Part shown: piece by piece, positions 5,739-61,395 of the stretch
Layout: every line of letters starts with the position of its first letter
Position numbering within the stretch: the first letter of the stretch is position 1
From: Mobula hypostoma
Lineage: Eukaryota
Length of the DNA: 64,000 bases
Direction: 5' to 3'
NCBI RefSeq assembly: GCF_963921235.1
Contig: NC_086108.1
Coordinates: 36,644,001-36,708,000 of the forward strand
Position numbers and translations under genes: made by a program
The notes under the pieces: model-generated
Told to the model about the DNA's origin: nothing
What the model saw: only the letters and a program-made list of their open reading frames with translations
The model's database searches: none

Positions 5739-5742
5739 GGAG

Positions 5743-5838
5743 CTAGTCCTGAAAAAGGGTCTCCCAAAACGTTGACTGTTTATTCTTTTCCATAGATGCT
5801 GCCTGGCTTGCTAAGTTTCTCTAGCATTTTGTGTGTGT
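5743..5838 (+). mobile_element. Penelope pLTR tail with decayed hammerhead, inverted relative to 3652-5738
   Basis: AGTCCTGAAAAAGGGTCTCCCAAAACGTTGACT followed by GATGCTGCCTGGCTTGCT…CAGCATTTTGTGTGTG. Confidence 0.75.
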
Positions 5839-10862: not shown

Positions 10863-12775
10863 ATAGACAATAGACAATAGACAATAGGTGCAGAAGTAGA
10901 CCATTTGGCCCTTTGAGCCTGCACCGCCATTCTGAGATCATGGCTGATCATCTACTATCAATACCCGGTTCCTGCCTTGTCCTCATAACCCTTGATTCCC
11001 CTTTCCATAAGATACCTATCTAGCTCCTTCTTGAAAGCAGCGCATTCCACACCTCCACAACTCTCTGGGAGAAGAAGTTCATCCTCAACTCTGTCCTAAA
11101 TGACCTATCCCTTATTCTTAAACCATGCCTTCTGGTACTGGACTCTCCCAGCATCTGGAACATATTTCCTGCCTCTATCTTGTCCAATCCCTTAATAATC
11201 TTATATGTCTCAATCAGATCCCCCCTCAATCTCCTCAATTCCAGTGTGTACAAGCCCAGTCTCTCTAACCTCTCTGCGTAAGGCAGTCCGGACATCCCAG
11301 GAATTAACCTAGTGAACCCACGCTGCACCTCCTCCACAGCTAGGATGTCCTTCCTTAACCCTGGAGACCAAAACTGCACACAATACTCCAGGTGTGGTCT
11401 CACCAGGGCCCTGTACAAATGCAAAAGGATTTCCTTGCTCTTGTACTCAATTCCCTTTGTAATAAAGGCCAACATTCCATTAGCCTTCTTCACTGCCTGC
11501 TGCACTTGCTCATTCACCTTCAGAGACTGATGAACAAGTACTCCTAGATCTCTTTGTATTTCTCCCTTACCTAACACCACACCGTTCAGATAATAATCTG
11601 CCTTCCTGTTCTTGCTCCCAAAGTGAATAACCTCACACTTATTCACATTAAACGCCATCTGCCAAGTTTCTGCCCACTCACCCAGCCTATCCAAGTCACC
11701 TTGAGTTCTACTGCCACCCAGCTTAGTATCATCAGCAAATTTGCTGATGTTATTCACAATGCCTTCCTCTAAATCATTGACGTAAATCGTAAACAGCTGT
11801 GGTCCCAATACCGAGCCCTGTGGCACCCCACTAGTCACCACTGCCATTTCGAGAAACACCCATTCACTGCTACCCTTTGCTTTCTATCTGCCAACCAGTT
11901 TTCTATCCATGTCAATATCCTCCCCCCAATGCCATGAACTCTGATTTTACCCACCAATCTCCTATGTGGTACCTTATCAAATGCGTTCTGAAAGTCAAGG
12001 TACACCACATCCATTGGATCTCCCGCGTCTATCTTCCTGGTTACATCCTCGAAAAACTCCAATAGATTAGTCAAGCATGATTTGCCCTTGGCAAATCCAT
12101 GCTGGCTCGGCCCAATCTTATCACTGCTATCAAGATATGCTGCTATTTCATCTTTAATAATGGACTCTAGCATCTTCCCCACTACTGATGTTAGGCTAAC
12201 AGGGCAATAGTTCTCTGTTTTCTCCCTCCCTCCTTTCTTAAAAAGTGGGATAACATTAGCCATTCGCCAATCCTCAGGAACTGATCCTGAATCTAAGGAA
12301 CATTGGAAAATGATCACCAATGCATCTGCAATTTCCAGAGCCACCTCCTTTAGTACCCTAGGATGCAGACCATCTGGACCTGGGGACTTGTTAGCCTTCA
12401 GTCCCATCAGTCTACTCATCACCGTTTCCTTCCTAATGTCAATCTGTTTCAGTTCCTCTGTTACCCTATGTCTTTGGCCCATCCATATATCTGGGAGATT
12501 GCTTGTGTCTTCCCTAGTGAAGACAGATCCAAAGTACTTATTAAATTCGTCTGCCATTTCTCTGTTTCCCATAACAATTTTTCCCAATTCATTCTTCAAG
12601 GGCCCAACATTGTTCTTAACTATCTTCCTTCTCTTCACATACCTAAAAAAAACTTTTGCTATCCTCCTTTATATTCCTAGCTAGCTTGCGTTCATACCTC
12701 ATTTTCTCTCCCCGTATTGCCTTTTTAGTTAAGTTCCGTTGCTCCTTAAAATTTTCCCAATCATCCGTCTTCCCA
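10863..12775 (-). mobile_element. 5'-truncated CR1 LINE (frameshifted ORF2)
   Basis: ORFs 11835-12638 and 11020-11859 carry [30 protein letters not shown] and KFADDTKL; (CTATTGT)n tail at 10863-10887. Confidence 0.95.
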
Positions 12776-14556
12776 TGTGGAAGCAACATCAGATGCATGG
12801 CAACTCTGGCAGGGTCTGCAAGACATTACATCCTGCAAAGCGAAACCCAATAGCATGAATGGCAGCGATGCTTCACTACCAGATGAACTCAATGCCTTTT
12901 CTGCCCACTTTGAAAGGGAGAACACAACTAGAGCTGTGAAGATCCCTGCTGCACCTGATGACCCTGTGATCTCTGTCTCAGAGGCCGATGTTAGGCTGTC
13001 TTTAAGGTGAGTGAACCCTTGCAAGGTGGAAGGTACCAATGGAGTACCTGGTAAGGCTATGAAAACCGGTGCCAACCAACTAGCAGGAGTATTCAACCTC
13101 TCACTGCTACTGGTGGAAGTTCCCACTTGCTTCAAAAAGGCAGCAATTATACCAGTGCTTAAGAAGAATAATATGGGCTGCCTTAAAGACTATCACCCAG
13201 TAGCACTCACATCAACAGTGATGAAGTGCTTTGAGAGGTTAGTTATGACTAGACTGAACTCCTGCCTCTGCAAGGACCTGAACCCATTGCAATTTGTCTA
13301 TCGCCACAATAGATCAATGGCAGATGCAATCTCAATGGCTCTCCACATGGCTTTCGACCACCTGGACAACACAAACACCTACGTCAGGATGCTGTTCATC
13401 AAATATAGCTCAGCATTTAATACCATCATTCCTGATTGAGAAGTTGCAGAGCCTGGGCCTCTGTACCTCCCTCTGCAATTGGATCCTTGTTTTCCTAACC
13501 GGAAGTCCACAATCTGTGCGGATTGGTGATGATATATCCTCCTCAGTGACGATCAGGGGTATGTGCTTAGCCCACTGTTCTACTCTCTATATACACATGA
13601 CTGTGTGGCTAAGCATAGCTTAACTACCACCTATAAATTTGCTGACGATACACTCATTGTTGGAAGAATCTCAGGTGGTGATGAGAGGGCATACAGGAGT
13701 GAGATATGCCAGCTAGTAGAGTGGTGGCGCAGCAACAACCTGGCACTCAATGTCAGTATGGTGAAAGAGTTGATTGTGGACTTCAGGAAGGGTATGGCAG
13801 AGGAACACCATACCAATCCTCATAGAGGGATCAGAAGTGGAGAGAGTGAGTAGTTTCAAGTTCCTGGGTGTCAAGATCTCTGAGGATCTAACCTAGTCCC
13901 AATATATTGATGTAGTTATAAAGAAGGCAAGACAGCTGTTATACTTCATTAGGAGTTTGAGGAGATTTGGCATGTCAACAAATACACTCAAAAACTTCTA
14001 CAGATGTACCATGGAGAGCATTCTGACAGGCTGCATCACTGTCTGGTATGGAGGGGCTACTGCACAGGACCAAAAGAAACTGCAGAGGGTTGTAAATCTA
14101 GTCAGCTCCATCTTGGGTACTAGCCTACAAAGTACCCAGGACATCTTTAGGGAGCGGTGTCTCAGAAAGGCAGCGTCCATTGTTAAGGATCTCCAACATC
14201 CAGGGCATGCCCTTTTCTCACTGTTACCATCAGGTAGGAGGTACAGAAGACTGAAGGCACACACTCAGCAATTCAGGAACAGCTTCTTCCCCTCTGCCAT
14301 CCGATTCCTAAATGGACATTGAACCCTTGGACACTACTTTTTAATATACAGTATTTCTGTGTTTTGCACAATTTGAAAAAATCTATTCAATATATATATA
14401 CTGTAATTGACTTGTTTATTTATTATTATTATTATGATGTTATATTTTATTTTATTCTTTTTCTCTGCTAGATTATGTATTGCATTGATCTACTGCTGCT
14501 AAGTTAACAAATTTCACGTCACATGCCTGTGATAATAAACCTGATTCTGATTCTGA
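12776..14556 (+). mobile_element. 5'-truncated Rex1/Babar LINE
   Basis: ORFs read [35 protein letters not shown] and HPGHALFSLLPSGRRYR; ends AATAAAC(CTGATT)n. Confidence 0.92.
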
Positions 14557-14789
14557 ATTTAGCAGGCCAGCCCTGATGAAAGATCTTGGACTGAAATGTC
14601 AGCTTTTTATTCCTCTCCACAGATGCTGCCTGACTTGCTGATTTCCTCCAGCATCTTGCATATGTCTCACCTCTGCGAGCTGTGCTTGATTATTGGTCGT
14701 AATGCCCTCTCCTTCTCATATTGGTTGAATTGCCTCTCACCATCTCTTCTCAATGAGCTGTTGGGAAGCAAAACATGATTTCGTTTTAT

Positions 14790-15970
14790 ATGAACACAAG
14801 AGATTCTGCAGGTGCTGGAAATTCAGAATAACACACACACACACACAACTCTGAAGGAACTCAGGCAGCATCTATGGAAATGAAAATACAGGTGATGTTT
14901 CAGGTCATGATGTTTCAACAGAACCGGAAAGGAAGGGGGATGATGGCAGAATAAAAAGGTCGGAGGAGGGGAAGGAGGACAAGCTAGAATGTGATAGGTG
15001 AAGCCAGGAGGGTGGGAAAGGTAAATGCCTGGAGAAGAAGGAAACTTATAGGAGAGGAGAGCGTACCATGAAAGAAAGAGAAGAAGGAGGGGCACCAATG
15101 GGACGTGAGAGCCAGGCAAGTCCATCTTCAATGGAATTGTGCCATCAAACACATCTTTACCTCCACCACCCAATTCTTCACTTTCAATAGCGATTGCTTC
15201 CTCCGTGATTCCCTCGTCAATTCGTCCCTTCCCACTAACTTCCCTCCTTGCAAGCAACAGGCATGCAACACCGGCCCATTCATCAACCTCTTATCTCCAT
15301 TCAGGGCTGCAGTCCTTCAAGGAGAAGCAATATCTTCTATTGCCTATGGTCTATTGTATCCAATGCTTCTGATGCAGTCTTATCTACTTTGGTGACACGT
15401 AACATAAATTGGGGGGCTGCTTTGTAGAGCAGTTCTGCTCCAACACCAAAAACAGAATTTCCTGGTGGCCAACCATTTTAATTTCTATCCCATTTCTGTT
15501 CTGATATGCTGATCCATGCTCTCCCCTTCTGCCATGATGGGGCCACTCTCAGTGTGGTGGAGCAACACCTCATATTCCATCTGGGTAGCTTCCAGATTAA
15601 TGGCATGAACAGCCATTTCTACTTCCAGTAATTCCTTTCCTCTGCCCTTTCCTCCTCTTCCCTTCCCCAGTCTGGCCTCTTACCTCTTCTCCTCACCTGC
15701 CTATCACCTCCCCCCAGTGCCCCTCCTTCTTCCCTTTCAGCCATGGTCCACTATCTTCTCTTATCAGATTCTTTCCTCTCCAGCCCTTTATCTTTCCCAC
15801 CCACCTGGCTTCACCTATCACCTCCTTCACCTTTCAATTCTGGCATCTTCCCTCTTCCTTTCCAGTCCTAATGAAGGATCTTGGCCTGAAATATCGACTG
15901 TTTATTCATTTCCATAGGTGCTGCCTGACCTGCTGAGTTTCTCCAGCATTTTGTGTGTGTTTCTCTGGAT
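14790..15970. mobile_element. Head-to-head inverted Penelope-like pair (minus arm about 14790-15105, plus arm about 15106-15970)
   Basis: Both arms end outward in the GATGCTGCCTG…CAGCATTTTGTGTGTG tail; plus arm has CAGTCCTAATGAAGGATCTTGGCCTGAAATATCGACT (decayed hammerhead) near 15863-15899. Confidence 0.8.
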
Positions 15971-22009: not shown

Positions 22010-22778
22010 GGCACCTCCTATTCTCTGGAATAATGCCCACCCATAAAGGAGAAGAGGAGTATGAAACTTGGGTGGAGCATGTTAGATGAGTGACAGTGCT
22101 CTGATGACGTAAAGTGACAGAGATTGGTTGAGAGTTTGAGTGGGCGGGCTGCTGGCATTGTGAGAACTGACATGTTGTGGTATCTCCTAGCAATCGTGAG
22201 CGATTACATGTGAGCCCTGGAAAACTCTTGGCCCGACGGGAAGCTCAATGGAGCTCATGGTGGGGTTTCAGAACTTGCATCAGGAGAAGGGGGAGAAGCT
22301 TTCTGCTCATACTTTTTGGCGAGAGAGGCAGCTAAGTTGCTTGCAGCGCAGAGGAGTCATTCAGGCGGCTCAGGTGGATCAGTTAAGAATGGACCAGATA
22401 GCCAGGGGTACCCAGTCCCAGGACCTGATTGGTTGGGGTCTCCGACTGTCTCGTAAGACGCACCCCCCTTCCTCTTTTGTTGAGCTGATCAGAGAGGTTC
22501 GAGAGAAGGAGAATGTGTTGGAGGCGTGGGAGACCTCCGTCAGTGGAGTACAGTCCTCGGTAGTGGTCTCCTGTGGTGAAGTGACCGCAGATAGCCTACC
22601 CCGGGGAGTGGTAGAGGAGATTGTGACAGAGTTGAGAATTGAGATGTCTTGGCCGTTATCAATGGGTGTGATTCCCTGCCCCCCCCCCCATATGATGGAG
22701 CTGATGAGGGGGCAGATCCCCTCAGGGGATGAACAATGCAAAGGGCAGCTGGCAGCAGATGTCACGCGAGGAAAGTGA
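22010..22778 (+). pseudogene. Gypsy gag, PNMA/Ma-like capsid (disrupted)
   Basis: Translation near 22018 gives LFSGIMPTHKGEEEYETWVEH; ORF 22248-22778 has QEKGEKLSAH and PPSSFVELIREVREKE; in-frame stops and frameshifts. Confidence 0.75.
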
Positions 22779-22899
22779 ACCCACGGGTACCGAAGCAGAG
22801 AGAGTCATGGGGAAAATTTAGAGGAGACCCAGTTGGGGAACAGCCTGGTGTCTCTAGGGGAACATGTTCCCAGCAATATACAAAGGAACCCCTGAAAGC

Positions 22900-25800
22900 G
22901 AAAGGCCCTATTCCTGAAGGTTTAGTGGGACCATACTGCAGTGTGTCGATACGGATAGAGGGTATTTATGCTGAAGCCATACTCAACACCGGGTCACAGG
23001 TCACGTTGTTGTATCGTTCGTTTTACAACCAGCATTTACCATTGACCCTATTCAGGGCACTGAAGATCTGGGGGCTTAGTGCCAATGATTATCCATATGA
23101 CGGTTATTTGTCAGTGAAGTTGGAGTTCTCGGAGGCCGATGTGGGAGCGTCTGAGGTCCTTGATACATTGATGTTGGTTTGTCTGGACCCTGTTGAGAAG
23201 CGCAGCATTTCAATTCTGGTGGAGACCAACACCTCTCTTGTGAAGAGGCTCATGAGGGCCTGCAAGGAGAAGACTGGCGAGAGCTTTCTGGGAACACTCT
23301 CCGTGAACTTGGACTTTCAAGCTGCTTTTGTGGAAGTGCGTGGCTGCATTTGGTCAGGCAACGGATTTAGACGAGGGACTGTGTGGTTCACCCAGTTGAA
23401 GCCAATGGTGGTACGGCCCAGGGAAGTAGCAAGAGTGATGGGGACCCCCAAATTTCCCAGACTTCCTGAGGGCGAGGCATCTTAATGGATGCGCCGGAAG
23501 ACCACGAGGGGGAGTCGGGATTTCCTGCTGGGGTACTGGTGAGGCCCGAATTGTAGAAGCCCTCGGTTGTACAGGCAAGCAGGATGGCAGTGATTGACAG
23601 GAACATTACGAACAGGGAGGTCACCTTCAAGCAAGGGATGCCACGGTGCATTTGTTCCCGGTGACGGTAATGTCTAACATCTCTGTGAGACAGGCCGGGG
23701 AGAAACTATTGGGAAAAGGGTGCAAGTTGACTGCTGAGTCATTAAACTTCGGGGACTCCCTGGTTCCTGTGGGTTGGAAGAGGAGGCTGGTAGAGAAGAT
23801 GTTGAAGCTGAAAGGTCTCTTTTCCACCAACGAGTTTGATGTGGGTTGTTCCAAGAGCACTTGTCACACTATCCAGGAGACTGAGGACACCCCGTTTAGA
23901 GACAGGTTGTGGAGACTGGCCCCTGCAGATGTGAAAGACGGTGCAGCAGCATTTGTGTAAGTTGAAGGAAACTAGGATCATCACTGAGTCCCGAAGCCCC
24001 TATGCATCCCCAATAGTAGTGGCCTGAAAGAAGAATGGGAAGATACAGATGTGTGTGGACTACAAGACTCTGAACAGGCACACTGTCCCTGACCAGTATA
24101 TGGTCCTGAGGATTGAAGACGGCCTGTCTGAGTGGTGAGAAGTGGTTCAGTATGCTGGACTTGAGGAGTGGATATTACCAGATCCCCATGAGTGAGGCTG
24201 ACAATGAGAAGACGGCCTTTTTAGGTCCGCTGGGATTCTTTCATTTCGAAAGGGTGCCCCACGGCATATTGGGTGCCCCTGCAAACTTCCAACGGCCATG
24301 GAGAAGACGGCGGGTGATATGAACTTCCTTGAGGTATTGGTGTATCTGGATGACCTCATAGTGTCTGGATCCACCTTGGAAGAACATGAAGTGAGACTAC
24401 TGAAGGTGCTGGGTTGCCTGAAAGCTGAAGGGTTAGAATTTTCCCTGGACAGGGTCCAGTTCTGCAAAGTGTCTGTTAGCTATGTTGGGCACATAGTCTC
24501 ATAACAGAGCCGGCTAGGATAGAGGTGGTGACCACTTGGCCAAGACCCTAGACTGTGAGCACTTTGCGCTCTTTCCTTGGGTTCTGTTGTAACTATCAGA
24601 GATTCGCGAAAGGCTATGTGAAAGTGAGTTACCCATTGAATCAGCTTCTGTGCAGTTACCCTCCCTTGGGGAAGAAAAGGAGGAGAAAAAAGGACAGGAT
24701 GGTGGAGAGTATCTTAGCCCATCGGAGCCCTTTGGACCGAGGTGGGATGTAAAATGTGAGGACACCTTTCAGTCGCTGAAGGAGTTGCTAACTCAGGTGC
24801 CGGTGCTGGCTTTTGCAGACCCCCGGTTGCCGTATGTGCTGCACACGGATGCCAGCTGAGAGGGTTTAGGGGGCAGACACTGTATCAGGATCAGGGCTCC
24901 GGGTTGAGACCCGTTGCATTTGTCAGCCGGAGTTTGTCACCCTCCGAGAAAATCTATCCCACGCACAAGTTGGAATTTCTGGCGTTGAAATGGGCGGTGG
25001 TGGATAAGCTGAGTGACTACCTCTATGGGACCAAGTTTGAGGTGAGGGCGGACAACAGACCCTTAATTTATATCCTGACCTTGGTGAAACTGAATGCCAC
25101 AGGCCATCGTTGGATGGCGGCGTTGTCTGCCTATGACTTCAGCCTGAAGTACCAGCTGGGAAGCAGGAACTTTGATGCTGGTGCTTTTGTCCCGACGGGC
25201 GCATGAAGGACTGGACATGGTCAAGGAGTGGGAGAGTGTTCCTGCCCCGGTGCTGAAGGCCCTGTGTCAGTTTGCCATCACCGTGAAGGCAGAGGGAAAG
25301 GAGGGGCAGGATCGAGCGGTGGATCAATTGGGAGCTTCTGGTGACGCCATTGCCCACGTTTACTGTAACATGACAGCTCTGAAGACAAATCAGCTGCCGG
25401 AATTGAGTTCTGGGGAAGTGGCAGCTGCTCAGCGAGATGATCCATGCATTGATACCATTTTGTCAGCAGTTGAAAAGGGAGACATGGCTCAGGCAGAGAA
25501 GATGAAATATGTGGCGGTGCCTCTATTACTGAAAGAATGGCCTCAGTTGGAGTTGAAGAACCAGATCTTATACTGGGTCACGTCACCCCCGGACTGACCC
25601 CGGCGTTGCCAGCTGGGTCTGCCAGAGAAGTATCGGAGGATTGTACTGAAGTCACTTCGTGATAATTCTGGACTTTTGGTGGTTGAGAAGATCTATGGAT
25701 TGCTCAGAGACCAGTTTTATTGGCCCTGAATGAAGTCAGAGGTTGAAGAATACTGCAAGTCATGCATTTGATGCATACGGTGGAAGACACTGCCTATGCA

Positions 25801-26858
25801 GGCAGCTCCCTTGTCCCACTTGCAGAGTGCAGGGCCCCTGGACCTGGTGTGTATGGATTTCCTGTCAATAGAACCCGATGCCAGCAAGATGGCGAATGTC
25901 TTAGTCATCACGGATCACTACATCAGATATGCTCAGGCTTTTCCTATCAAGAACCAGAGGGCATCCACGGTGGCCAAAGTGTTATGGGAGAAGTATTTAA
26001 TTTAATATCGCCTTCCCGGGTGAATACATAATGATCATGGATAGGTTTTCGAGACTAGACTCATCTATGAGTTACTGGGCATGCTTGGAGTCGAGAAGGT
26101 GAGGCCATGGCCTATCATTTGCAGGATGATCCCCAGCCCAAGAGGTTTAATCAGACTTTGCTAGACATGCTTGGGACCTTGGAGATCAGAAAGAAGAGCA
26201 GGTGGAGTCAACATATTTGACATCTAGTCCACAGTTACAACTGTACCCGAAATGAAACTACTGGGTACTCACCATACTATCTGATATTTGGGCATGAGAA
26301 GAGGTTGCCCATTGACCTTTGTTTTGGGACTGACGAGGGCGACTTACCACTGAAGACATCTGAAATATGTGTCTGATATGAGAAGAGAGCTGAAAAGGGC
26401 TTATAATTGTTGTGGTAGTGGCTGCCAAGCAGAATCAAGGGAATAAGAGGAGGTATGATCAAAAGATGAGGTTCTCCCAACTCCTGCTGGGAGACAGAGT
26501 CCTCATAAGGAATTTGGGGCAACTTGGGAAGCATATGTTGGTTGACTGCTGGGCGGCTGCGCTCTATGTGGTGGAGAGTCAGATGCCAAACCTACCAGTT
26601 TTCTGGGTGAAACCGGAGGATGGGAATGGGCCTGTCAAGGTTCTCCATCAGAACCACCTGCTGCCCCTGAGACGAGAGATGCAGGTAGACCCAGAGCCTG
26701 ACTTGGAGCCTACACCCAGTAAGAGGACCTGGAAACACGGGGTGACGGCGGGGCCAACAGCAGGAGAGGTTAAGCTGGCCCCCACCCCTGAGAGGGATAC
26801 TGATTCAGAGGATGAGGACCTGGATGTGTGGTATATGCTGCCTTTTTCTAACTCCTGA
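22900..26858 (+). pseudogene. Gypsy pol (protease, RT, RNase H, integrase), fragmented
   Basis: AILNTGSQVT (protease with D>N), FSMLDLRSGYYQI, VYLDDLIV, LHTDAS, RPVAFVSRSL…KLEFLALKWAV, DLVCMDFL…VITDHY; many stops and frameshifts. Confidence 0.92.
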
Positions 26859-27877: not shown

Positions 27878-28550
27878 CTCTTCTCAGTCTTCCAGCCAGG
27901 TACAGGTACCAATTTTAACCAACATTTCAATGACAAACTCTGCCATCTTCTTCAGGGATGATGCCTGGGCATGTCTAGACCAGTGGTATATAGGCCCCTG
28001 TCATCTGTCCCTCCTGATTGGTTAGTTCTCATCCAATCAGGTTTCTGTTGTGCCATTTTGTTTACAATCGATTCCAGTTCTTACATAGAGCGAGACCTTT
28101 GTCCTTGTTAAAATACGTTTCCTCTAGTTTTATTTCAATGGCTTCCTTCACCAGGCAGTCCCAAAAGCCATTGGGGTGGCACAATAGTTTTGTGCCATCT
28201 AAGTCAATCCTATGGCCGTTGCGAATGCAATGTTTTGGCACCACTGACTTCTCCGGGTATTGCAAATAGATGCACCTCCTGTGCTCCTTGTGATGGGTTT
28301 CCACCCTATGTCCCATCTGGCTGATACTCGCCACTCTGCATCCACAGGGAATCCTGTAAACACCGGCTGTCCTGAGTCCCAGGTCATCTTTGACCCATAT
28401 TAGCTGTGATTTGAGCTTCCGAATGGGGTTGTGGATGGTAGTAATCCAGTATTTCTTCAGGATCTTGGCAATCCTTCCAGAAACTGTGGAAAAATAGGGA
28501 ATACAGGCAGTAGCAATGGGTTCCTCCTCATTGTTAAGTTTCCTGGTTCG
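27878..28550 (-). mobile_element. Penelope-like element of a second (Poseidon-type) family, GIY-YIG 3' fragment
   Basis: Minus translation AGVYRIPCGC…KEHRRCI…SVVPKHCIRNGHRIDL…KEAIEIKL; hammerhead motif in the 3' tail. Confidence 0.8.
27919..27957 (-). ncRNA. Hammerhead ribozyme motif (decayed) with 8-bp stem II
   Basis: Minus strand CC-CUGAAGA-A-GAUGGCAG-AGU-UUGUCAUU-GAAA-UGUU-GG. Confidence 0.6.
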
Positions 28551-29872
28551 TTCCTTCGATATGGTTGACAGGGAGTACCTATGGCGAATGCTGTCAAAAC
28601 TTGGCTGTCAGCGCAGATTTGTCAACGTTGTCCATCTCTTCTACAATGACATCAGTGGCCTTGTTCTGTCAGATGGGGAGACAACGATTCCGTTCGGCAT
28701 TTCAAGTGGCGTGAAGCAAGGGTGCATACTGTTCATCTGTTCCTCACATGCATACTACACCATGCATTCAGCACCGTATTGTGTGGGATATACATAAGGT
28801 ACAGAATGGACAGATCACTTTTTGACTTGTGTCTCTTGAGGGTTCGTAGGTGAACAATCAGTAATCTCATCTGAGAAGCCCTATGCGCTGATGATTGTAC
28901 CCCAATGGCCCACACAGAAGCCGATCTTTAGCTGCTTGTCAATAGGGTTGCAGAGGCCACACGTCTGTTTGGCCTCACCATCAGCCTACAACAGTCAGAA
29001 GTCCTGTTCCAACCCGATCCAACGTCTATTGCCCCCGTCCCATCCATCTGTGTCGAAGGTACACAGCTTAGAACAGTGGAGGAATTCAAGTACCTTGGAA
29101 GTGTTATTTCCAGTGATGATTTCCTAGACAAAGAAATCAGTGCTGGGATTTGCAAGGCCAGTCAAGCCCTCAGGCACTTGCATTCACATGTACTGAACCA
29201 GCATAACATCTGAAAAGCCACGAAACTCACAGTGCACAAAGTGGTCATCCTTAGCAGTCTATTACTTGGCTGGGAAACCTGAACTGTGTACAGAAAACAC
29301 CTTAAAATGCTGGAACCCTTCCATACATGTAGCCTGAAATCAGTCCGGGGCATCCGTTGGTCGGACCGTGCCACCAACCTGGAAGTCCTCGAAGGAGCAG
29401 AGAGCACAGGCATAGAGGCAATGATCCTGCAGGTCCAGCTTCACTGGACAGGGCATGTTATGCTCATGGAGGATTCCAGAATACCCAAACAATTGCAATA
29501 CGGAGAACTGTCATAAGCAAGTAGAGACAGGGGTGACCTTGTAAGAGGTTTAAGGACTACATGAAAGCCAACCTGGTGCATGCTGACGTTACACCTAAGC
29601 AGCTTGAGTGAAGTGCTCAGGACCGGACTGGATGGGGTGCCCTGGTGAGAAGAGCCTCCAACGACTTTGAGAACAGTTGCCGTGCAGATCTGTCCGCTGC
29701 TCGAGAGAGGGGAAAAATTGTCATATCAGTTGCTCCAACAGCATCCGGAGGGTTCACCTGCCCTCACTGTCACTGCTCACGCCTTTCTAGAATCGAACTG
29801 CAGAGCCACCTCAGAGCACACAATTGATGAGCTGCACAGACGAATGTCGTCGTTGGATACAACGGACAACTA
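28551..29872 (+). mobile_element. RTE-clade LINE 3' fragment (RT and C-terminal C2H2-like finger)
   Basis: FDMVDREYLWRMLSKLGC…GVKQGCI, LHWTGHVMLMEDSRIPKQLQYGEL, FTCPHC…LQSHLRAH. Confidence 0.85.
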
Positions 29873-34788: not shown

Positions 34789-37055
34789 CAGTGTTTCCCA
34801 ACCATTTTTAGCACAAAACCCCCCTAAATCACCTTCATTCTTGCCATTGCCTCTCTTAAGCATAATATACTTTCTGGCACCCCCATAGTGTAAAAACATG
34901 TTTACCATATGCTCACATGAGAAAAATAATTCTACTTTAAATTTTTATTTGTCTTTAAACCTAGCTTACGCAGTACCTGTGTGCTGTACAGCAGCTTCGA
35001 TATCAATGTGATCTTTAAGCTTGATGGTTTTTAGCAAGAGTTGAAATATCTGGTTCAAGTTAAATCCCCATGCCTAACAATGTCCTCGTGGTTTCTGTTT
35101 TTTTGTGAGTATGTGGTTCACTGCACTGAAGCCTCTTTCAACAAGGTAGTAGGATGGAAATGCAATGAAGAGCAGTTTGGCTCTTCTCCAAGGACCAGGA
35201 AACTTCGTATGACAGTGCACCCACCTACCGCAAAAGCCCAAAAATTTTTACAAAACATTTTTGCTTCTTCATCATATGGAATTTCAATAATTTCTTCTTG
35301 CAAATTCTCTTCATGTTCTCCTCATGTTCTTGCAGAGAAATGAGTTAGTACCGAGTCTGGAATTTCCAGATCATTCAAATCCTTGAATCGATTCTGAAAA
35401 TTCTTCTTCAGTGACTGCAGGTGTAAGTAGTACGCTTGCAAATCACTGTCTGTGAAAGAGAGTGACATACTTTCCATGCAGGGAGACTGAGAACATTCTT
35501 CTTCCTATGTTTTACTTATATATTTCCAATTTTCTGAAAAAAGTGAACACTGCAGTTTTTGCCTGGGCTAAATTGAAATTTTCACCCTACAGTTTAATAT
35601 TTAGAATGTTCATTTTGGCATACAGATTGGCTAGGTATGCCACATATCCATGTAGAGGTTGAATCTTGTTTCCGAAGCTCTTGTAAACTTTGAGTAAAAA
35701 TGCTACCACAGTGTCAAAAAGATTGAAGAAATATTTTAAGCAGCGTCCTTTTGATAACCAACACACTTCAATGTGAAGAAGCAAGCGTTCAAACTCTTCA
35801 TCTTTATCTTGGTATAACTGGCAAAATATTCTGCTATTTAATGGATGAGCTTTAATTTTGTAGTGAGCAGATATTACAAGAATCATGCTTGAAAAAAGTC
35901 GCTGGCTGAGGTTTTTGGCTATGAGGTGTCGACGATGAATACACAATGGATTGGAAACAGACTTGGAATTTCTTTTCTCATAAATGCCACTAATCCAGCA
36001 TGGCAACCTGTCATATACGGTGCTCCACCTGTTGCGCAGAAAATCATGTTCCTAATTGGAATACTTTTATGCTCAATATATATTTTGAGCTTGTCATAAA
36101 TTGATTCTCCGTTGATATTTGTTTTTAAATTTTTATGAGAGAGTATGTGTAAAATTTTCCATTTTTGATAAACTGTTCATGTGCCATTAGCAATGCCTCA
36201 TTGTCTCACACAGTTGTATCCCAAATTCTGTTTGTTGTAGCTCTGTGCGTGGTTGATACTCAATGTCTTCAATCATTTCATCAATACGATGAGCTACAAA
36301 GTTATTACTTGGAGGAATTGATTTTAAGATACTGGTATCCATTTTGAGAACAGTGGTGAGCACTTCTGATACAGCAGGCATTATTAATCTTTCATCAATT
36401 GTATGAGATTTTCCACACTCTGCTATCATTTTGGAAATGTGATATGAAGCAATGAGACTACTATCAAGATCATTTTTAGCTTTCTTGGCAAATGACTCGA
36501 GTGTGCAATGCTTTTCAAATGTTTCTTTCATCTTCTGGAACTGAATAATACCATAAGTAGCCTTTTCAGTGTGCCTTTTACAGAAGTGTTCCTGCAGTCT
36601 TGATGGTTTCATGACTTCATTAGGCAGTACAGTATACAAATAAAATACATGGGGTCTCACTGATCTGATGAAATTGGAATAAAACCCACACCCCAGGTAT
36701 GTAACATTGTATTGACGCACTTCCTGTTGTTTCTGTTTCTTAGCAGGATTAGAATTCAAGGCTTCACTGCCTTCAGGCACATAGAGATCATGCCATACAT
36801 ATTTATCCATCATTAACAGGGCTAAATTAAATTAAAAAAAGAACACAAACTAGGAATTCCTGTTGGATGTTGATGATGACAGTGAGTTGACACCGATAGA
36901 ACGATGGCAGCGGCACGCAAAGGAACGGCGAGACGAAGATGAAGATGATCACAACAGAGAAAATTACGTTGACAAGGAATCAGATTGGAATCTGAATGTT
37001 GGTCGGGATAGATCTGATGTTCAGGAAGCTACCTTTATTCTATTCCAGCCAGCGT
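34789..37055 (-). mobile_element. hAT (Buster/Charlie-like) DNA transposon relic with one TIR
   Basis: TIR CAGTGTTTCCCAACC at 34789 preceded by CATTAGAA; minus ORFs 36187-36813 (BED-like MKPSRLQEHF…H) and 35587-36006 (CIHRRHL, LLLHIEVCWLSKGRCL); second TIR not found. Confidence 0.88.
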
Positions 37056-39480: not shown

Positions 39481-40605
39481 TTCCTGCTGTACCAAAGGGT
39501 TGTCTTTGAAAACAAAGGCTCTGGCAGACTGATGTGATACCAATAGGGAACATTGGTATCTTCTTTGGCAGAGTGCTGACGTGTTGCTTGATCTCTCTGG
39601 AAACTATATCAGGTATAATGTACATTGACAGAACTAGGCTGGAACACTCATCATAAGATTGAAAAATTAGCACATCCAAATATTTATAACTATCTCTCTA
39701 GAGTTGGACTTCAACCCCTAACATTTGCATTCAAATATGAGAATGCTACATTTGTACATTCTCTCTGTGACTGTGCGTGTTTATCTGGCTGTCCCTACTT
39801 CCTATCTTAATTGATCACCCTGAATTACCCCTTTCTTGTGGTTGAGTGGCATAATCAGGTGTGGGGTGGTGGTTGTGGTGAGGTGAAGATGATGTCGGAA
39901 CAATAACATAAAGGAATTAATGTAGAATGAGTGTAAAATGGTGCTTGGTGGCCAGTGTGGATTTGATGGACCTGTGTCTTTGTCATGTCTCTCTGTGACA
40001 CAATGGTCTTTAAGATTTCTGTATGCCAACAGAGTGTACCATGGACCCACATGTTAGATGTTGGTAAGATTACTCAGTATCTTGTGCTTAGTAATGTGTC
40101 ATCAAAGCAGTTATGCATGTTTTGATTGAGGTAACAAAAATAATTTGGATCCAATGTAGTGAAGACTAACAAATAGTAAGTGACAAAACTAGTTATTTAT
40201 AGTAATTTCTTATGAAAAAGAAAGATAAACAAATGGCTGAATACAGAGCATTCAAGAATAGGCACTTTGGACCATTGCATCTGAGCTGACCCTGTTGTCA
40301 GTCTAAATTAATTCCATCTGCCTTGAATATCTGTATCCCAAAATTCCTGCCTGTTCACATGTCTGTCTAAATGCCTTTCAAACGGTGCTGTTGTATCTGT
40401 TTCTACAATCTCAGTTGGCAACACACACCAGGAACTTGCCACTTACTGTGTAAAACAAAAAAACCTGCCTCATAAGTCTACTTCCAACTTTTTCCTTCTG
40501 ACCTTTAATCTACGCTTTCTAGATTTAACACTTACACCTTGTGGGAAAAGGATTTAGTTATCCACCCTACCTATGCTCCTCATAATTTTGTATACTTCTA
40601 TCAGG

Positions 40606-40852
40606 CCAACTCCGCCATGGATGGTCCCAAGCCTGGCTGTGGAAGGAGGAGGGTTGGGCACGGGGCTAGCGATCCCATCCGTTAAAGCCTAGAGCCATAG
40701 AAATGCCAACAGAAGCTCCAAATATCTTATCCCTGGGAGAGGAAGGATCTTCAAAGATGGACTACACCTCTGGACAACTTGAAAGACTGGCACAGGAAAG
40801 AGGACTCTGGTGAGCTGCTGTTGGTGGCCTATGCCCCAGGCTTAACTGGTAA
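40606..40852 (+). mobile_element. Non-autonomous 247-bp retroelement with twister-ribozyme head and RTE-like 3' tail
   Basis: 8-bp TSD CTATCAGG (40598-40605 and 40853-40860); twister motif at the 5' end; 3' end GCACAGGAAAGAGG…GCTGTTGGTGGCCTATGCCCC…TAAC resembles RTE termini. Confidence 0.75.
40608..40657 (+). ncRNA. Twister ribozyme motif (3' cleavage-product form)
   Basis: AA-CUCC-GC…UGG-U-CCC-AA-GC-CUG…GGAG-GA-GGG-UUGG: P2 CUCC/GGAG, T2 GC/GC, T1 CCC/GGG, conserved GA; P4 weakened by CpG-type changes. Confidence 0.75.
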
Positions 40853-42049
40853 CTATCAGGATACTTGTCAGTCTCTAATGCTCCAGAGAAAACAATACAA
40901 ATTTGTCCACACTCTCTTTAATACATACCAATCTAGGCAATATCCTGGTGAACCTCTTCTGTCCCCTCTCCAAAGTCTCCATACCCTTCCCATAGTGTGA
41001 CAAGCAGAACTACACCCAACACTCCAGATACCCGGGCGCTAAATGGAAAGATTCTTCACACTACTTGGTAGTCTTTGCTTTTCAGGCTAAGATTACTAAA
41101 CTGAAAGCTGACTAAAGTGGATGATGGAGTGTACCAATGATACTTATTTTGCAGTTTTGACTGATTAATGTGATGGAATTTTTCCTCACACTGTTAAATA
41201 CATGAGCTTAAAAATCTGTGGTCTGGTGAATAGTCTGTTGTCTGTGATAACAATTCTGTGTGACTTTCAGTAGTTTGGTGATCTGAGATGTCCCAGTGAT
41301 ATTTGTCTTAATTACCATTATCTCGAGTATATTGCTAATTTGACTCCTGCAAAATATATTAGGTGTGCCACAGAACAATAGGAGTATTGAGCAATTACCA
41401 TTATTATGTTAAACTTGATTCAGATTCTGATCACCGGTATTCACTTTCTTTAACTGTTTCTGTCCTGCCCAGGGGATGCTGTAAACTCAGACGCTGAAAT
41501 CAAACCCACTGCATTCACCAAGAACTTCCTAATGCCAGTGAAGTGTATTTACACCTGTCTCTGATAGGATTTTCCTCTACATATCTGAGAACCATTTGTT
41601 AATGATTTTAATAATAGTGAAGCAATAACTAATTAGAATGTATGTTCCCAATTTCTCAGTCTCTTAATATAGTTAGCTTTCTTCAATTGTATTTCCTCAG
41701 CAATGAAATAATTATCCAGGCTGCATTAATTCCTCATGCAGAAAGTAGCTATTAAAAACTATTTTAGCAGACATCTATATATTAAGCCAAGGTGACTGAT
41801 ACAATTATTAATAGTAATATTACCTACGTTTATTGTGGTTATGATGTTAATAAATAATTATGTTGCCCCAGAGGTTGTTAGTTAATATTTCAATTGCTCT
41901 CCACATATGCTTTGCATTCTCAGTAATCTCAAGCTCTTATTCATCACATAAATCATTTAAAAGACTACTCAGTGCCTGATTAACTATATGCCTGTGAAGT
42001 AAACAGATCTTTCTAAAACATAAAACTTGCAAGCATTACCTTTGAATAG

Positions 42050-43753: not shown

Positions 43754-45265
43754 CATCATCATCATCATCAGGTCCCGTGCCCAGTCTGAGCTTTGACTGC
43801 CATGGCCCACACACTCCTGTTTCCGGTCAAGTGGATCAATTCATTGGTATTCATTTCCAGTTCTCTGGCTGCTGTCTCCATCATCATTTGTCTTTGTCTT
43901 CCTCTTTCTTTCTTCCCTTCAATCTTTCCTATAATTATCATGCCTTCTAACTCCTCTTTCCTAATCACATGTCCAATGAAGTCACGTTGCCTTTTCATGA
44001 TCTCATACATTATTTCTCTTTTGGTGTTTGCTCTGTTCATGACATCTTCATTAGATATTCGTTTCGTTCATGATATTCTTTGCATCCTCCTCAAAAAACC
44101 ACATCTCTGCTGCTTCAATTCATTTCCTCGTTACCAGGTATTGTCCAACATTCTGAGCCATATAACATAACTGGATAAACGTAACATTTCAGTACTCTGA
44201 GGCGGGTTGTCATGCCTAGTTTAGTGTTGGTCAGTATATTTTTCATTCTCATTAAGGTGTCTTTTGCCATCCCTATTCTTCTTTTGATGTCCATGTCGCA
44301 CCTGCCATCTGATGTTACCCAGCTTCCTAAGTAGCAAAAGTTCTGTACTTATTTTATGTCTTCCCCGTTTATTTTCAGCCTGCAGATAGGATTCTCCTTC
44401 TTTTTGGATATCACCATACATTCTGTCTTTTTGTAATTGATAGATTGACCCATTTTTGCACTTTCTTCAACAACTATGTGTGGCACGTGGCCAAGTAGTT
44501 AGGGCATTGGACTAATGATCTGAAGGTCGTGAGTTTGTGCCACAGCTGAGGCAGCGTGTTGTGTCCTTGAGCAAGGCACTTAACAACATTGCTCCAGTCC
44601 ACCCAGCTGAAAATGGGTACTGGCAAAATATTGGGGGTTAACCTCACGATAGACTGGCATCCTATCCGGGGGGGGGGTGGGGGGGGGTGTGGGGGGAGTC
44701 TCGTACTCTCAGTCGTTTCATGCCACGGAAACCAGTATAAGCACTGGCCTGATGGGCCACAAGGCTCATGATGGACTTTAACTTTAACTTCAACAACTAT
44801 ATCAATTAAGTTTTGTAGTTCTTCCTCTGTACTTGCAATTAGCACAGTGTCATCCGCATATCTAAAATTATTGGTGTTTTCACCGCCAGCTTTGATTCCC
44901 AAGGTGGCTCTTAGTTTTTGTAATATTGTTTCACTGTACACATTAAACAAATCAGGGGAGAAAACACACCCTTGTCTAGCACCTCTCTTGATTTTCGTAA
45001 ACTGACACACTTCTCCATTTATTCTTACTGTGGCAGTATGTTCCCAGTACAGATTTCTGATTAGGCAGAGGTCTTTCGAATCTAGATCTGCCATTAGCCT
45101 TCAGTTGTATCCTGAGCAGGAACCCTTGCAGGTGCTACCGTTCCGGGTCAGAGCGGCCCTGGGAGCAATGAATGACTAAGGGGTAGCTCCACTTTCCCTG
45201 AAGCTCTGAAAGTCCCAAATCAGAGCCTCATCACCAGTCGCAGTTTAGAGTCATACCCAGGACTC
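43754..45265 (-). mobile_element. Internally deleted RTE-clade LINE: 5' leader fused to RT C-terminal half, (GAT)n tail
   Basis: 11-bp TSD GTTTTCTCATT (43743-43753 and 45266-45276); GARQGCVFSPDLFNVYSE, NNFRYADDT, FIGHVIRKEELE…GKIEGKKERGRQR. Confidence 0.9.
44478..44787 (+). mobile_element. tRNA-derived SINE nested in the RTE
   Basis: 13-bp TSD CTTCAACAACTAT (44465-44477 and 44788-44800); A box TGGCCAAGTAGTTAG and decayed B box; (ACTTTA)n tail. Confidence 0.88.
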
Positions 45266-46233: not shown

Positions 46234-46387
46234 ATATTACACACTCAAATCTACATATTACACACTCAAATCTACATATATTAAACACTCAGATCTACAT
46301 AATACACATTCAAATCTACATATTACACACTCAAATCTACATATTGAACACTCAGATCTACATAATACACACTCAAATCTACATATT
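46234..46387. repeat. Minisatellite, about 7 copies of a 21-bp unit ATTACACACTCAAATCTACAT
   Basis: Direct reading of tandem units. Confidence 0.9.
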
Positions 46388-56244: not shown

Positions 56245-57205
56245 TTAGCGGAAATTAGAGAAGTCGATGTTCATGCCATCAGGTTGGAGGCTACCCAGAC
56301 GGAATATAAGGTGTTGTTCCTCCAACCTGAGTGTGGCTTCATCTTTATAGTAGAGGAGGCCGTGGATAGACATGTCAGAATGGGAATGGGATGTGGAATT
56401 AAAATGTGTGGCCACTGAGAGATCTTGCTTTCTCTGGCGGACAGAGCGTAGGTGTTCAACAAAGCGGTCTCCCAGTCTGCGTCGGGTCTCGCTAATATAT
56501 AAAAGGCCACATCGGGAGCACCGGACGCAGTATATCACCCCAGCCGACTCACAGGTGAAGTGTTGCCTCACCTGGAAGGACTGTTTGGGGCCCTGAATGG
56601 TGGTAAGGGAGGAAGTGTAAGGGCATGTGTAGCACTTGTTCCGCTTACACGGATAAGTGCCAGGAGGGAGATCAGTGGGGAGGGATGGGGGGGACGAATG
56701 GACAAGGGAGTCGCGTAGGGAGCGATCCCTGCGGAAAGCAGGGGGGGGGGAGGGAAAGATGTGCTTAGTGGTGGGATCCCGTTGGAGGTGGCGGAAGTTA
56801 TGGAGAATAATATGTTGGACCCGGAGGCTGGTGGGTTGGTAGGTGAGGACCAGGGGAACCCTATTCCTAGTGGGGTGGCGGGAGGATGGAGTGAGAGCAG
56901 ATGTACGTGAAATGGGGGAGATGTGTTTAAGAGCAGAGTTGATAGTGGAGGAAGGCAAGCCTTTTCTTTAAAAAAGGAAGACATCTCCCTCGTCCTAGAA
57001 TGAAAAGCCTCATCCTGAGAGCAGATGCGGCGGAGACGGAGGAATTGCGAGAAGGGGATGGTGTTTTTGCAAGAGACAGGGTGAGAAGAGGAATAGTCCA
57101 GATAGCTGTGAGAGTCAGTAGGCTTATAGTAGATATCAGTGGGTAAGCTGTCTCCAGAGACAGAGACAGAAAGATCTAGAAAGGGGAGGGAGGTGTCGGA
57201 AATGT
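56245..57205 (-). pseudogene. Penelope polyprotein C-terminus: RT end, Cys-rich linker and GIY-YIG endonuclease (one frameshift near 56960)
   Basis: LPFLDL…YYKPTDSHSYLDYSSSHP…IPFSQFLRLRRICS; CKRNKCYTC; GVIYCVRCSRCGLLYISETRRRLGDRFVEH…QPDGMN. Confidence 0.92.
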
Positions 57206-57320
57206 TCTTAAACACATCTCCCCCATTTCACGTATCTTAAACTCATCTCCCCCATTTCACGTCTTACAAACATCTCCCCCATTTCACGTATCTTAAACGC
57301 ATCTCCCCCATTTCACATAC
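57206..57320 (+). repeat. Four tandem 27-29-bp copies of TCTTAAACACATCTCCCCCATTTCACGTA at the inversion junction
   Basis: Units start at 57206, 57235, 57262 and 57291; single copy in the opposite arm near 56904-56932. Confidence 0.9.
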
Positions 57321-58274
57321 ATCTGCTCTCACTCCATCCTCCCACCACCCCACTAAGAATAGGGTTCCCCTGGTCCTCACCTACCACCCCACCAGCCTCC
57401 GGGTCCAACATATTATTCTCTGTAACTTCTGCCACCTCCAATGGGATACCACCACTAAGCACATCTTTCCCTCCCCCCCCTCTCTGCTTTCCGCAGGGAT
57501 CGCTCCCTACGCGACTTCCTTGTCCATTCGTCCCCCCCATCCCTCCCCACTGATCTCCCTCCTGGCACTTATCTGTGTAAGCGGAACAAGTGCTACACAT
57601 GCCCTTACACTTCCTCCCTTACCACCATTCAGGGCCCCAAACAGTCCTTCCAGGTGAGGCAACACTTCACCTGTGAGTCGGCTGGGGTGATATACTGCGT
57701 CCGGTGCACCTGATGTGGCCTTTTATATATTGGCGAGACCCAACGCAGACTGGGAGACCGCTTTGCTGAACACCTACGCTCTGTCCGCCAGAGAAAGCAG
57801 GATCTCCCAGTGCCCACACATTTTAATTCCACATCCCATTCCCATTCTGACATGTCTATCCACGGCCTCCTCTACTGTAAAGTTGAAGCCACACTCAGGT
57901 TGGAGGAACAACACTTTATATTCCGTCTGGGTAGCCTCTAACCTGATGACATGAACATCGACTCCTCTAACTTCAGCTAATGCCCCACCTCCTCCTCGTA
58001 CCCCATCTGTTACTTATTTTTATACACACATTCTTTCTCTCACTCTCCTTTTTCTCCCTCTGTCCCTCTGAATATACCCCTTGCCCATCCTCTGGGTCCG
58101 CCCCCCCCTTGTCTTTCTTCCCGGACCTCCTGTCCCATGATCCTCTCATATCCCTTTTGTCTATCACCTGTCCAGCTCTTGGCTCCATCCCCCCCCCCTC
58201 CTGTCTTCTCCTATCATTTTGATCTCCCCCTCCCCCTCCAGCTTTCAAATCCCTTACTCACTCTTCCTTCAGTT

Positions 58275-58709: not shown

Positions 58710-61395
58710 ACCTAGAAACATTGAAAACCTACAGCACAATACAGGCCCTTTGGCCCACAAAGTTGTGCCGAACATGTCCCTATCTTAGAAATTACTAGGC
58801 TTACCCATAGCCCTATTTTTTTCTAAGATCCGTGTACCTATCCAAAAGACTCTTAAAAGACCCTGTCGGATCCACACCACCACCTTCGCCGGCAGCCCAT
58901 TCCATGCACTCACCACTCTCTGCGTAAAAAACTTACCCCTGACATCTCCTCTGTACCTATTTCCAAGCACCTTAAAACTGTGCCCTCTTGTGATAGCCAT
59001 TTCAACCCTGGGAAAAAGCCTCTGACTATCCACACGATCAATGCCTCTCATCATCTTATATATCTCTATCAGGTTACCTTTCATCATCTGTCGCTCCAAG
59101 GAGAAAAGGCCAAGTTCACTCAACCTATTCATGTAACGCATGCTCCCCAGTCCAGTCAACATCCTTCTAAATCTCCTCTGCACCCTTTCTATAGTTTCCA
59201 AATCTTTCCTGTAGTGAGGTGACCAGAACTGAGCACAGTACTCCAAGTGGGGTCTAAACAGGGTCTTATATAGCTGTAACATTACCTCTAGGCTCTTAAA
59301 CTCAATCCCATGGTTGATGAAGGTCAATGCACTGTATGCCTTCTTAATCACAGAGTCAACCTGCACAGCAGCTTTGAGTGTCCTATGGACTAGGACTCCA
59401 AGATCCCTCTGATCCTCCACACTGCCAAAAGTCTTACCATTAATGCTATATTCTGCCATCATAGTTGAACTATCAAAATGAACCACCTCACACTTAACTG
59501 GGTTGAACTCCATCTGCCACTTCTCAGCCCAGTTTTGCATCCTATCTATATCCCACTGTAAACTCTGACAGCCCTCCACACTATTCACAACACCCCCAAC
59601 CTTTGTGTCATCAGCAAATTTACTAACCCATCCCTCCACTTCCTCATCCAGGTCAATTATAAAAATCACGAAGAGAAAGGGTCCCAGAACATATCCCTGA
59701 GACACACCACTGGTCACCGACCTCCATGCAGAATATGACCTGTCTACAACCACTCTTTGCCTTCTGTGGACAATCCAATTCTGGATCCACAAAGCAAGGT
59801 CCCCTTGGATCCTATGCCTCTTTACTTTCTCAATAAGCCTTGCACGGGGTACCTTATCAAATGCCTTGCTGAAATCCACATACACTGCATCTATCTTCAT
59901 CAATGTGTTTAGTCATGTCCTCAAAAAATTCGATCAGGCTCGTAAGGCACAATCTGACTTTGACAAAGCCATGCTGACTATTTCTAATCATTTTATGCCT
60001 CCCCAAATGTTCACAAATCCTGCCTCTCAGGATCTTTTCCATCAACTTATCAACCACTGAAGTGCAACTCACTAGTCTATAATTTCCTGGGCTATCTCTA
60101 CTCCCTTTCTTGAATAAGAGAAAAACATCGGCAACCCTCCAATCCTCCAGAACCTCCCCCATCTCCACTGATGATGCAAAGATCATTGCCAGAGGCTCAG
60201 CAATTTCCTCCCTCGCCTGCCACAGTAGCCTAGGGTATATCTCATCCGGTCCAGGAGACTTATCCAACTTGATGTTTTCCAAAAGCTCCAGCACATTCTC
60301 TTTCTTAATGTTTATATGCGCAAGCTTTTCAATCCACCGTAAGTCATCTCTACAATCGCCAAGATCCTTTTCTATAGTGAATACTGAAGCAAAGTATTCT
60401 TTAAGTACCTCAGCTATCTCCTCCAGTTCCATACATACTTTACCACTGTCACACTTGATTGCACTTGTTCTCTCACGTCTTATCCTCCTTCTCTTCACAT
60501 TCTTGTAGAATGCCTTGGGGTTTTCTTTAATCTTATCTGCCAAGGCCTTCTCATGGCCCCTTCTGGCTCTCCTAATTTCATTCTTAAGCTCCTTCCTGCT
60601 AGCCTTACAATCTTCTAGATCTCTATCATTACCCAGTTTTTTGAATCTTTCGTAAGCTTTTCTTTTCTTCTTGACTAGATTTTCAACAGCCTTTGTACAC
60701 CATGGTTCCTGTACCCTACCATCCTTTCCTTGTCTCATTGGAACGTACCTGTGCAGAACTCCACACAAATATCCCCTGAACATTTGCCACATTTCTGCTG
60801 TACATTCCCAATTTATGCTTCCAAGTCCCTGCCTGATGGTTTCACATTTCCCCTTACTCCAATTAAATGTTTCCCTAACTTGTCTGTTCTATCCCTCTCC
60901 AATGCTATGATAAAGGAGATAGAATTGTGATCACTATCTCCAAAATGCTCTCCCACTGAGAGACCTGACACCTGACCAGGTTAATTTCCCAATACCAGAT
61001 CAAGTACAGCCTCTCCTCTTGTAGGCTTATCTACATATTGTGTCAGGAAACCTTCCTGAACACACCTAACAAAGTCTACCCCATCTAAAGCCCTTGCTCT
61101 AGGAAGATGCCAATCAATATTTAGGAAATTAAAATCTTCCACCAGACCAACCCTGTTATTATTACACCTTTCCAGAATCCGTCTCCCTATCTGCTCCTTG
61201 ATGTCCGTGTTACTATTGGGTGGTCCATGAAAAACACCCAGTAGAGTTATTGACACCTTCCTGTTTCTAACTTCCACCCACAGAGACTCAGTCAACAATC
61301 CCTCCATGACTTTCTCCTATTCTGCAGCCGTGACACTATCTCTGATCAGCACTGCCATGCCCCCCACCTCTTTTACCTTCCTCTCTGTCATCTCT
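58710..61395 (-). mobile_element. CR1 LINE of a different subfamily, part of the endonuclease through RT to the 3' tail
   Basis: ORFs 60981-61307 (ESLWVE, EDFNF, PTRGEAVLDLVLGN), 59857-60792 and 58785-59903 (DFSKAFDKVP, FADDTK). Confidence 0.94.

Follow-up and report, generated by a model that had tools for sequence, protein, structure and literature searches.

The window analyzed here, a 64,000-nucleotide stretch of the Mobula hypostoma genome, contains a 247-base insertion (40606-40852) that begins with letters resembling a twister self-cleaving ribozyme and ends in a tail resembling that of an RTE retrotransposon. What kind of element carries such a head, and how was its 5′ end made? The initial annotation had proposed a non-coding, SINE-like family with no tRNA head, whose 5′ end is generated by self-cleavage of read-through transcripts and whose 3′ end recruits RTE machinery.

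Insertion site and anatomy of the element

The insertion is bounded by an exact 8-bp target-site duplication (CTATCAGG). When the insert and one copy of the duplication are removed, the empty site reads as an uninterrupted ORF2 C-terminal frame on the minus strand of the host fragment, which we take to be CR1 from its C-terminal motifs and its likeness to the ORF at 58785-59912. The empty-site junction is spanned by two of five BLAST hits to other CR1 copies, with net indels of 0 and -1, in agreement with the earlier proposal of an insertion inside an old CR1. Only CC separates the left duplication from the AA of the ribozyme core, and the element thus starts within 2 nt of the predicted scissile bond, as had also been claimed (Table 1). 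Relative to the family 3′ end, about 12 nt are missing from this copy after position 40839. The locus is an old repeat in neutral decay, with no sign of a host function.

Table 1. Features of the insertion and its host fragment (positions are those of the window)
Feature	Position	Strand	Evidence
Left target-site duplication (CR1 sequence)	40598..40605	+	Exact repeat; empty site collinear with other CR1 copies
CC, two extra nucleotides between duplication and element start	40606..40607	+	Unconserved across the family
P3-less twister core (P2, P4, T1, T2, and G40649 as predicted general base), beginning with the A that follows the predicted cleavage site	40608..40653	+	Rfam twister-P1
Hairpin of the family, behind the ribozyme and sharing bases with the P1 3′ strand; decayed here	40655..40682	+	Covariation in 17 heads
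5′ part, first ~146 nt of the parent RTE (5′ UTR)	40608..40753	+	74-78% identity to long-copy 5′ ends
3′ part, last ~28 codons of the parent RTE ORF, one stop	40754..40839	+	77-86% identity to long-copy 3′ ends; tblastn
3′ terminus, decayed TAAC-like repeats, past the ~12-nt loss	40840..40852	+	
Right target-site duplication	40853..40860	+	Exact repeat
Host CR1 3′ fragment, decayed	40240..41030 (limits approximate)	-	Likeness to ORF 58785-59912

Elsewhere in the window, protease-, RNase H-, and integrase-like motifs in broken ORFs (22200-26858, plus strand) presumably mark a decayed Gypsy-type LTR retrotransposon. We take 28062-28607 (minus strand), 56245-57657, and 1415-1894 to be Penelope-like RT/GIY-YIG fragments, 35587-36831 (minus strand) to be hAT/ZBED-like transposase fragments, and 44474-45100 (minus strand) to be an RT fragment of a second and different LINE with an RTE/BovB-like look. 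Tandem repeats lie at 46234-46387 (21-bp unit, 7.2 copies) and 57206-57316 (29-bp unit, 3.9 copies).

Twister-like head

An element-by-element match of the head to the twister consensus had been claimed, and AA, P2, T2, T1, and the conserved G were located again at the same places: A40608-A40609, P2 at 40610-13/40645-48, T2 GC at 40614-15/40631-32, T1 CCC at 40626-28 with GGG at 40651-53, G40649, and the P1 3′ strand at 40654-57 (T1/T2 naming follows the review PMC5408937). The conserved AA, general-base G, P2, P4, T1, and T2 are present in this copy and as majority letters of the family, in which the outer P4 pair is an A.G mismatch. The upstream P1 strand is absent, as had been noted, and the P1 stem does not form in this copy (three of four positions unpaired). 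The suggestion that the P4 letters reflect CpG decay also held up, with columns 15-16 and 27-28 acting as CpG sites among 124 heads. Every scored twister feature is kept in the copy studied and in only 10 of the 124 heads, the latter figure being too low, as some first A's were lost to trimming in the local alignment.

With the Rfam twister-P1 model (RF03160), which includes P3 and P1, both absent from these heads, the copy scores 23.3 bits (E 0.041), and matches were obtained in 15 of 20 loci chosen for their good preservation (highest score 39.8 bits, E 3.2e-5). Taken alone, the match of this copy is weak, and the family yields stronger ones; the gathering score of 67.2 is reached neither by the 20 picked loci nor by this copy. 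P1 is reported to be dispensable in twisters and P3 to be missing in about 20% of them (PMC5408937; PMC11662667); flaws in P1, P2, and P4 are described as tolerated, whereas pseudoknot or catalytic changes are harmful (PMC11662667).

Covariation of the core helices is not seen in the head alignment, because the search pattern fixed the core pairs. Selection on the ribozyme in genomic copies was considered and rejected: in 27 unbiased copies, mismatch is 11.7% in the core and 11.9% outside it, and such equal decay indicates that genomic copies are not under selection. Pseudoknot-free folding (MFE) was uninformative, being no better than shuffles (z 0.13 to 1.5); the loop CCC and a downstream G-run are predicted to form a rival helix. 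The 5′ end of the element was likely made by the ribozyme, and the chance that this particular copy would still cleave is put somewhat short of even.

Origin from a single RTE retrotransposon

The tail translates as KMDYTSGQLERLAQERGLW, then a stop, then AAVGGLCP. In three loci found by a tail pattern, the tail is preceded by RTE coding sequence, and searches with that coding sequence gave 102 and 175 candidates. The same head lies upstream of RTE coding sequence in 18 of 30 loci from the second of these searches, and head and tail occur in order in 8 of 10 long loci examined, these eight being decayed copies; an autonomous-type RTE sharing both ends of the element, as had been anticipated, is thus present. 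The 5′ part was compared with the 5′ ends of long copies L151, L152, L155, and L156 (Table 1), while the 3′ part matches by tblastn residues 966-999 of a 1004-aa EN+RT protein (P0051). The junction between the two lies ~14 nt before the parent's ATG.

L151, the one long copy translated in full, spans ~3.0 kb with stops and frameshifts and matches, in broken frames, 1000 of 1006 residues of an S. haematobium EN+RT+DUF6451 protein (P0014). One L151 segment matches 197 proteins, many from Schistosoma and others from gastropods, fish, and turtles, and the full-length protein matches, ~1000 aa long, combine endonuclease, RT, and DUF6451 domains. An intact RTE was not found in the genome loci examined, and direct Pfam scans of eight broken segments returned only a weak DUF6451 match and one unrelated weak match. 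The RTE clade name of the parent follows from likeness to Schistosoma elements, and we take the parent to be Perere-3-like from the ~1000-aa Schistosoma matches.

About 146 nt from the start and ~100 nt from the end of one ~3-kb RTE LINE make up the element. Since an internal deletion in one LINE accounts for both head and tail, the element belongs to the bipartite non-autonomous RTEs (SIDE-like), a class already described, and is no novel sort of SINE that gained its ribozyme separately. The marks of that class are all found: the 5′ end of a LINE, the 3′ end of that LINE together with short tandem repeats, multiple copies with target-site duplications and shared junctions, and a parent with a single ORF for APE and RT. 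Of the initial proposal, the multicopy family and the lack of a tRNA head are supported. No small-RNA Pol III head (tRNA, 5S, 7SL) was detected by ARAGORN in six loci (0 genes) or by Rfam at the studied copy, as expected from the earlier claim that no tRNA head exists; the head is RTE 5′ UTR. The term "non-coding" is only half true: it fits the 5′ UTR half, but not 40754-40839, which is the decayed C-terminal coding end of the parent.

Copy number, ends, and target-site duplications

The genome searched, whose richness in CR1 would fit a cartilaginous fish, comprised 3.48 Gb in 200 contigs and gave 5085 first-look candidates. The best 39 other copies, a ranking that favors full-length ones, are 81-85% identical, and 33 of these 39 start at query position 1-3. 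An unbiased sample was drawn with a mid-head 30-mer that is blind to both ends (181 exact matches, the first 30 in contig order). In this sample, model positions 1-8 are reached by 29 of 30 copies and positions 1-2 by 25, and one copy is 5′-truncated; the tail lies within ~200 nt in 29 (short copies), and one runs into the ORF. One copy is interrupted by a later insertion and one is duplicated. Non-CpG mismatch to the majority letter is 11.8% (203/1725 sites, 27 copies), which leads to a copy number of roughly 3,400-15,000, with about 7,500 obtained from the empirical match rate of 2 in 83; the insertion studied is likely one of thousands of copies. The family looks extinct, its copies decaying neutrally.

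Among 91 heads, conservation is 88% and 85% at the two initial A's and at most 45% at any position upstream, which, with the head start reached by 29 of 30 unbiased copies, bears out the prediction of a multicopy family whose 5′ ends pile up at AA. Target-site duplications of at least 10 nt with at most one mismatch flank 34 of 91 short copies versus 4 of 300 swapped-flank controls; the commonest length among those 34 is 12 nt, and 30 of them end within -1 to +2 of the first A. T is enriched just before the AA (45/95 versus a 29% background, p=1e-4), including when query-ranked copies are left out (33/69, p=7e-4), and our guess is that this reflects an untemplated A which the RT adds on reaching the end of its template. 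An argument from an absent cap-derived G was dropped, since G at -1 is not significantly depleted (9/69, p=0.17) and no literature support for it was found.

Four short copies (L055, L056, L084, and L233) are split by later insertions, which are CR1-like in L055 and L084. The family thus inserted into CR1 and was hit by CR1, indicating that both were active over overlapping periods. L089 (G000:C67 ~2775800-2776400, minus strand), a longer deletion derivative, carries the twister head tandemly repeated about four times followed by the rest of the 5′ UTR, and the head of L227 is also duplicated; by analogy with retrozymes, such tandem ribozymes could release monomer RNAs.

Junction classes

Sorting of 115 short head-tail pairs by junction placed 31 in class A (that of the insertion studied), 31 in B, 6 in D, 6 in G (a longer head with a ~65-nt tail), and 41 in none of these, A and B being over-sampled by the queries. 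The 27 loci classed from the unbiased set comprise A 5, B 5, D 1, G 6, and other 10. One diagnostic base occurs in 12/31 junction-B copies, 0/30 junction-A copies, and 1/27 long copies (A versus B, p=2e-6). The 3′ repeat TAAC is found in 18/24 long versus 3/91 short copies, the first 3′ unit of the 91 short copies being TAAG in 44 and TAAC in 6. Bases linked to junction B, together with the differing 3′ repeats, indicate that the short elements were amplified from masters of their own.

Metagenome relatives and the hairpin behind the ribozyme

A pattern scan of metagenome contigs yielded 67 loci, with the same 46-nt head and spacing in 61. RTE-like coding sequence lies downstream of the head in 19 of the 67, many of the others having little sequence. 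No metagenome locus has an RTE C-terminus within 1 kb behind the head; therefore, no short bipartite relative was found in these contigs. Locus L193 is a longer deleted form. The head at L179:374-463 is one base off the best genome copies over the 46-nt core and is followed by an RTE ORF, a likeness that hints at strong constraint or horizontal spread. A second, more diverged EN-encoding group (L160, L164, L171, L178, L202, and L218) combines the same 46-nt twister core with a different and longer 5′ UTR. Metagenome twisters with the same core and a full P1 were also observed (L169, L172, L195, L197, L198, L209, L212-L214, L222, and L223, and further L161, L167, L189, L190, L206, and L216); their upstream strand is complementary to the 3′ strand and conserved, some recur within one contig, no RTE ORF was seen at them, and they are possibly retrozyme-like repeats.

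Immediately behind the ribozyme, a 10-pair hairpin begins inside the UUGG of the P1 3′ strand in a sample of 17 heads, 3 from this genome and 14 hand-picked from metagenome contigs (11 with RTE coding sequence). Pairing is found in 87% of cells versus 45-64% in slid controls, and six pairs change on both sides, with 17 such cells versus 5.2 in shuffles (0/500); the helix was drawn from the same 17 related sequences, making this evidence strong and non-independent. In the copy studied, hairpin pairing is predicted at only 0.02. Partition-function calculations on seven copies from this genome predict that the loop CCC mispairs with the G-run at 0.75-1.0 in all seven when the 3′ arm of the hairpin is absent, versus 0.18-0.41 in five and >0.9 in two when it is present.

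Mechanism and alternative explanations

The favored reading, with a probability of roughly 0.8, is that the element is an internally deleted, protein-less RTE copy, cut free by its twister head and mobilized by the protein of its parent. Host Pol II read-through would supply the RNA, and the P3-less twister would cleave 5′ of the first A without a P1 made from flanking sequence, so that daughters would start at AA and lose the upstream strand. The EN/RT of the parent would recognize the 3′ end and act in trans by target-primed reverse transcription, and several master copies with different junctions would have been amplified. No RNA was listed for this locus, which speaks neither for nor against expression. 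In three contig sets from the same species, guessed to be RNA, 638, 471, and 449 contigs resemble a sister copy, and 39, 23, and 25 contigs extend upstream of the AA; many copies therefore appear uncleaved there, or the runs hold DNA, contigs of this kind being unable to show starts, strand, or cleavage.

Were the 5′ end instead a transcription start set by an internal promoter, the twister-like fold would be vestigial, or would protect the RNA or aid translation. Such an account is in keeping with Rfam scores below threshold, with cleavage that is only predicted, and with the competing fold of the loop CCC and the G-run; it is nevertheless improbable, given that the boundary falls on the exact base left by twister cleavage, that the catalytic and pseudoknot letters are identical to those of cleaving Perere-3 variants in Table 1 of PMC8501958, and that diverged RTE ORFs are preceded by the same head. 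A chimeric SINE, in which the twister head had been acquired independently and the RTE tail borrowed, would be compatible with the lack of a tRNA head but is scarcely credible: all 146 nt of the head are 5′ UTR of the tail's own RTE, and individual loci in which head, ORF, and tail follow one another refute it.

Short copies might also have arisen as one-off RT jumps, at hot spots, from the 3′ to the 5′ end of full-length RTE RNA. The many junctions (41/115 pairs outside the four classes), the short shared words at some of them, and the intermediate deletions L038, L089, L121, and L157 would all fit. Recurrence of junctions A and B in 31 copies each (in samples selected for them) with 0-1 nt of microhomology, the linkage of diagnostic bases to junction B, the difference in 3′ repeats between short and long copies, and the 29:1 ratio of short to long copies leave this explanation only a slim chance, although RT jumps may account for a minority of unique junctions.

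Amplification of internally deleted copies by the parent's protein can be taken a step further, if tentatively. In RTE elements of this lineage, a two-part 5′ module, consisting of the P3-less twister and a conserved hairpin whose covarying arms absorb the P1 3′ strand and the G-run, might render cleavage independent of the insertion site and prevent misfolding, in which case deletions keeping a ~150-nt head and a 65-100-nt tail would be working promoter-less retroelements and would give rise to a swarm of independent twister-headed mini-elements, ~30:1 over the parent. Since any such deletion would work as a retroelement, a vertebrate RTE would thereby have spawned a twister-headed swarm. This extension is regarded as possible, with the odds against it.

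Relation to known elements and implications

Separate publications cover bipartite non-autonomous RTEs, twisters at the 5′ ends of RTEs, and R2 SIDEs headed by a ribozyme. Bipartite RTEs are described as common (PMC5786205; PMC7245038), with RTE-N1_Lch (262 bp), RTE-N2_Lch (286 bp), RTESINE1/2, WALLSI3, and Bov-A as examples, and as usually retaining the LINE's true 5′ end, a feature linked to 5′ ribozymes (Kojima 2018, PMC5786205). Like these, the present family has only RTE 5′ and 3′ ends, a length of about 250 bp, and no small-RNA head; unlike them, its 3′ part is mostly coding, and the passages of PMC5786205 drawn on here name no twister. From RTE-N1/N2_Lch it differs in RTE lineage, the fragments in the supplement of that paper being dissimilar by eye.

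In Perere-3 of Schistosoma mansoni, twister cleavage leaves a 5′-AA whatever base stands at -1 (Liu et al. 2021, PMC8501958). As described there, the T-variants of Perere-3 share with the present family the RTE clade, a single EN+RT ORF, a 5′ AA adjoining the target-site duplication, identical P2, L4, L1, T1, T2, and P1 3′ letters, and 4-nt 3′ repeats. Unlike those variants, the present family lacks P3, has 3 nt more in its 3′ L2 strand and A.G as its outer P4 pair, resides in another animal, and consists mostly of short non-autonomous derivatives. Truncated yet catalytically competent twisters are said to be conserved at RTE-superfamily 5′ ends in one sentence of PMC7761336, marked "in preparation", alongside which that passage gives no data or non-autonomous elements. 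The general premise of the initial annotation, that twisters occur at some RTE 5′ ends and cleave 5′ of an A, is accordingly published (PMC8501958; PMC7761336). R2 SIDEs combine a 5′ self-cleaving ribozyme with a LINE 3′ end (Eickbush and Eickbush 2012, PMC3414825); like them and the trypanosome RIME/NARTc, the present family makes a complete non-autonomous unit of a 5′ ribozyme and a LINE 3′ end. The ribozymes of R2 SIDEs and RIME/NARTc are HDV-like, whereas the fold here is that of a twister, and R2 SIDEs are rare and rDNA-specific, whereas this family inserts genome-wide, likely in thousands of copies. Searches of the open literature returned no paper on a twister-headed bipartite RTE; the family may already be deposited in Repbase or listed in a published supplement.

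The family joins two published threads by placing a twister at the exact 5′ end of bipartite non-autonomous RTEs, and thereby bears on the question, raised by Kojima (PMC5786205), of whether 5′ ribozymes explain why bipartite elements arise so frequently from RTE. With its covarying pairs, the hairpin behind the ribozyme extends the twister-RTE model in a way that can be tested. The swarm of junctions maps the minimal cis needs of RTE RNA, namely a head of ~140 nt and a tail of down to ~65 nt (class G), a map useful for RTE-based insertion tools.
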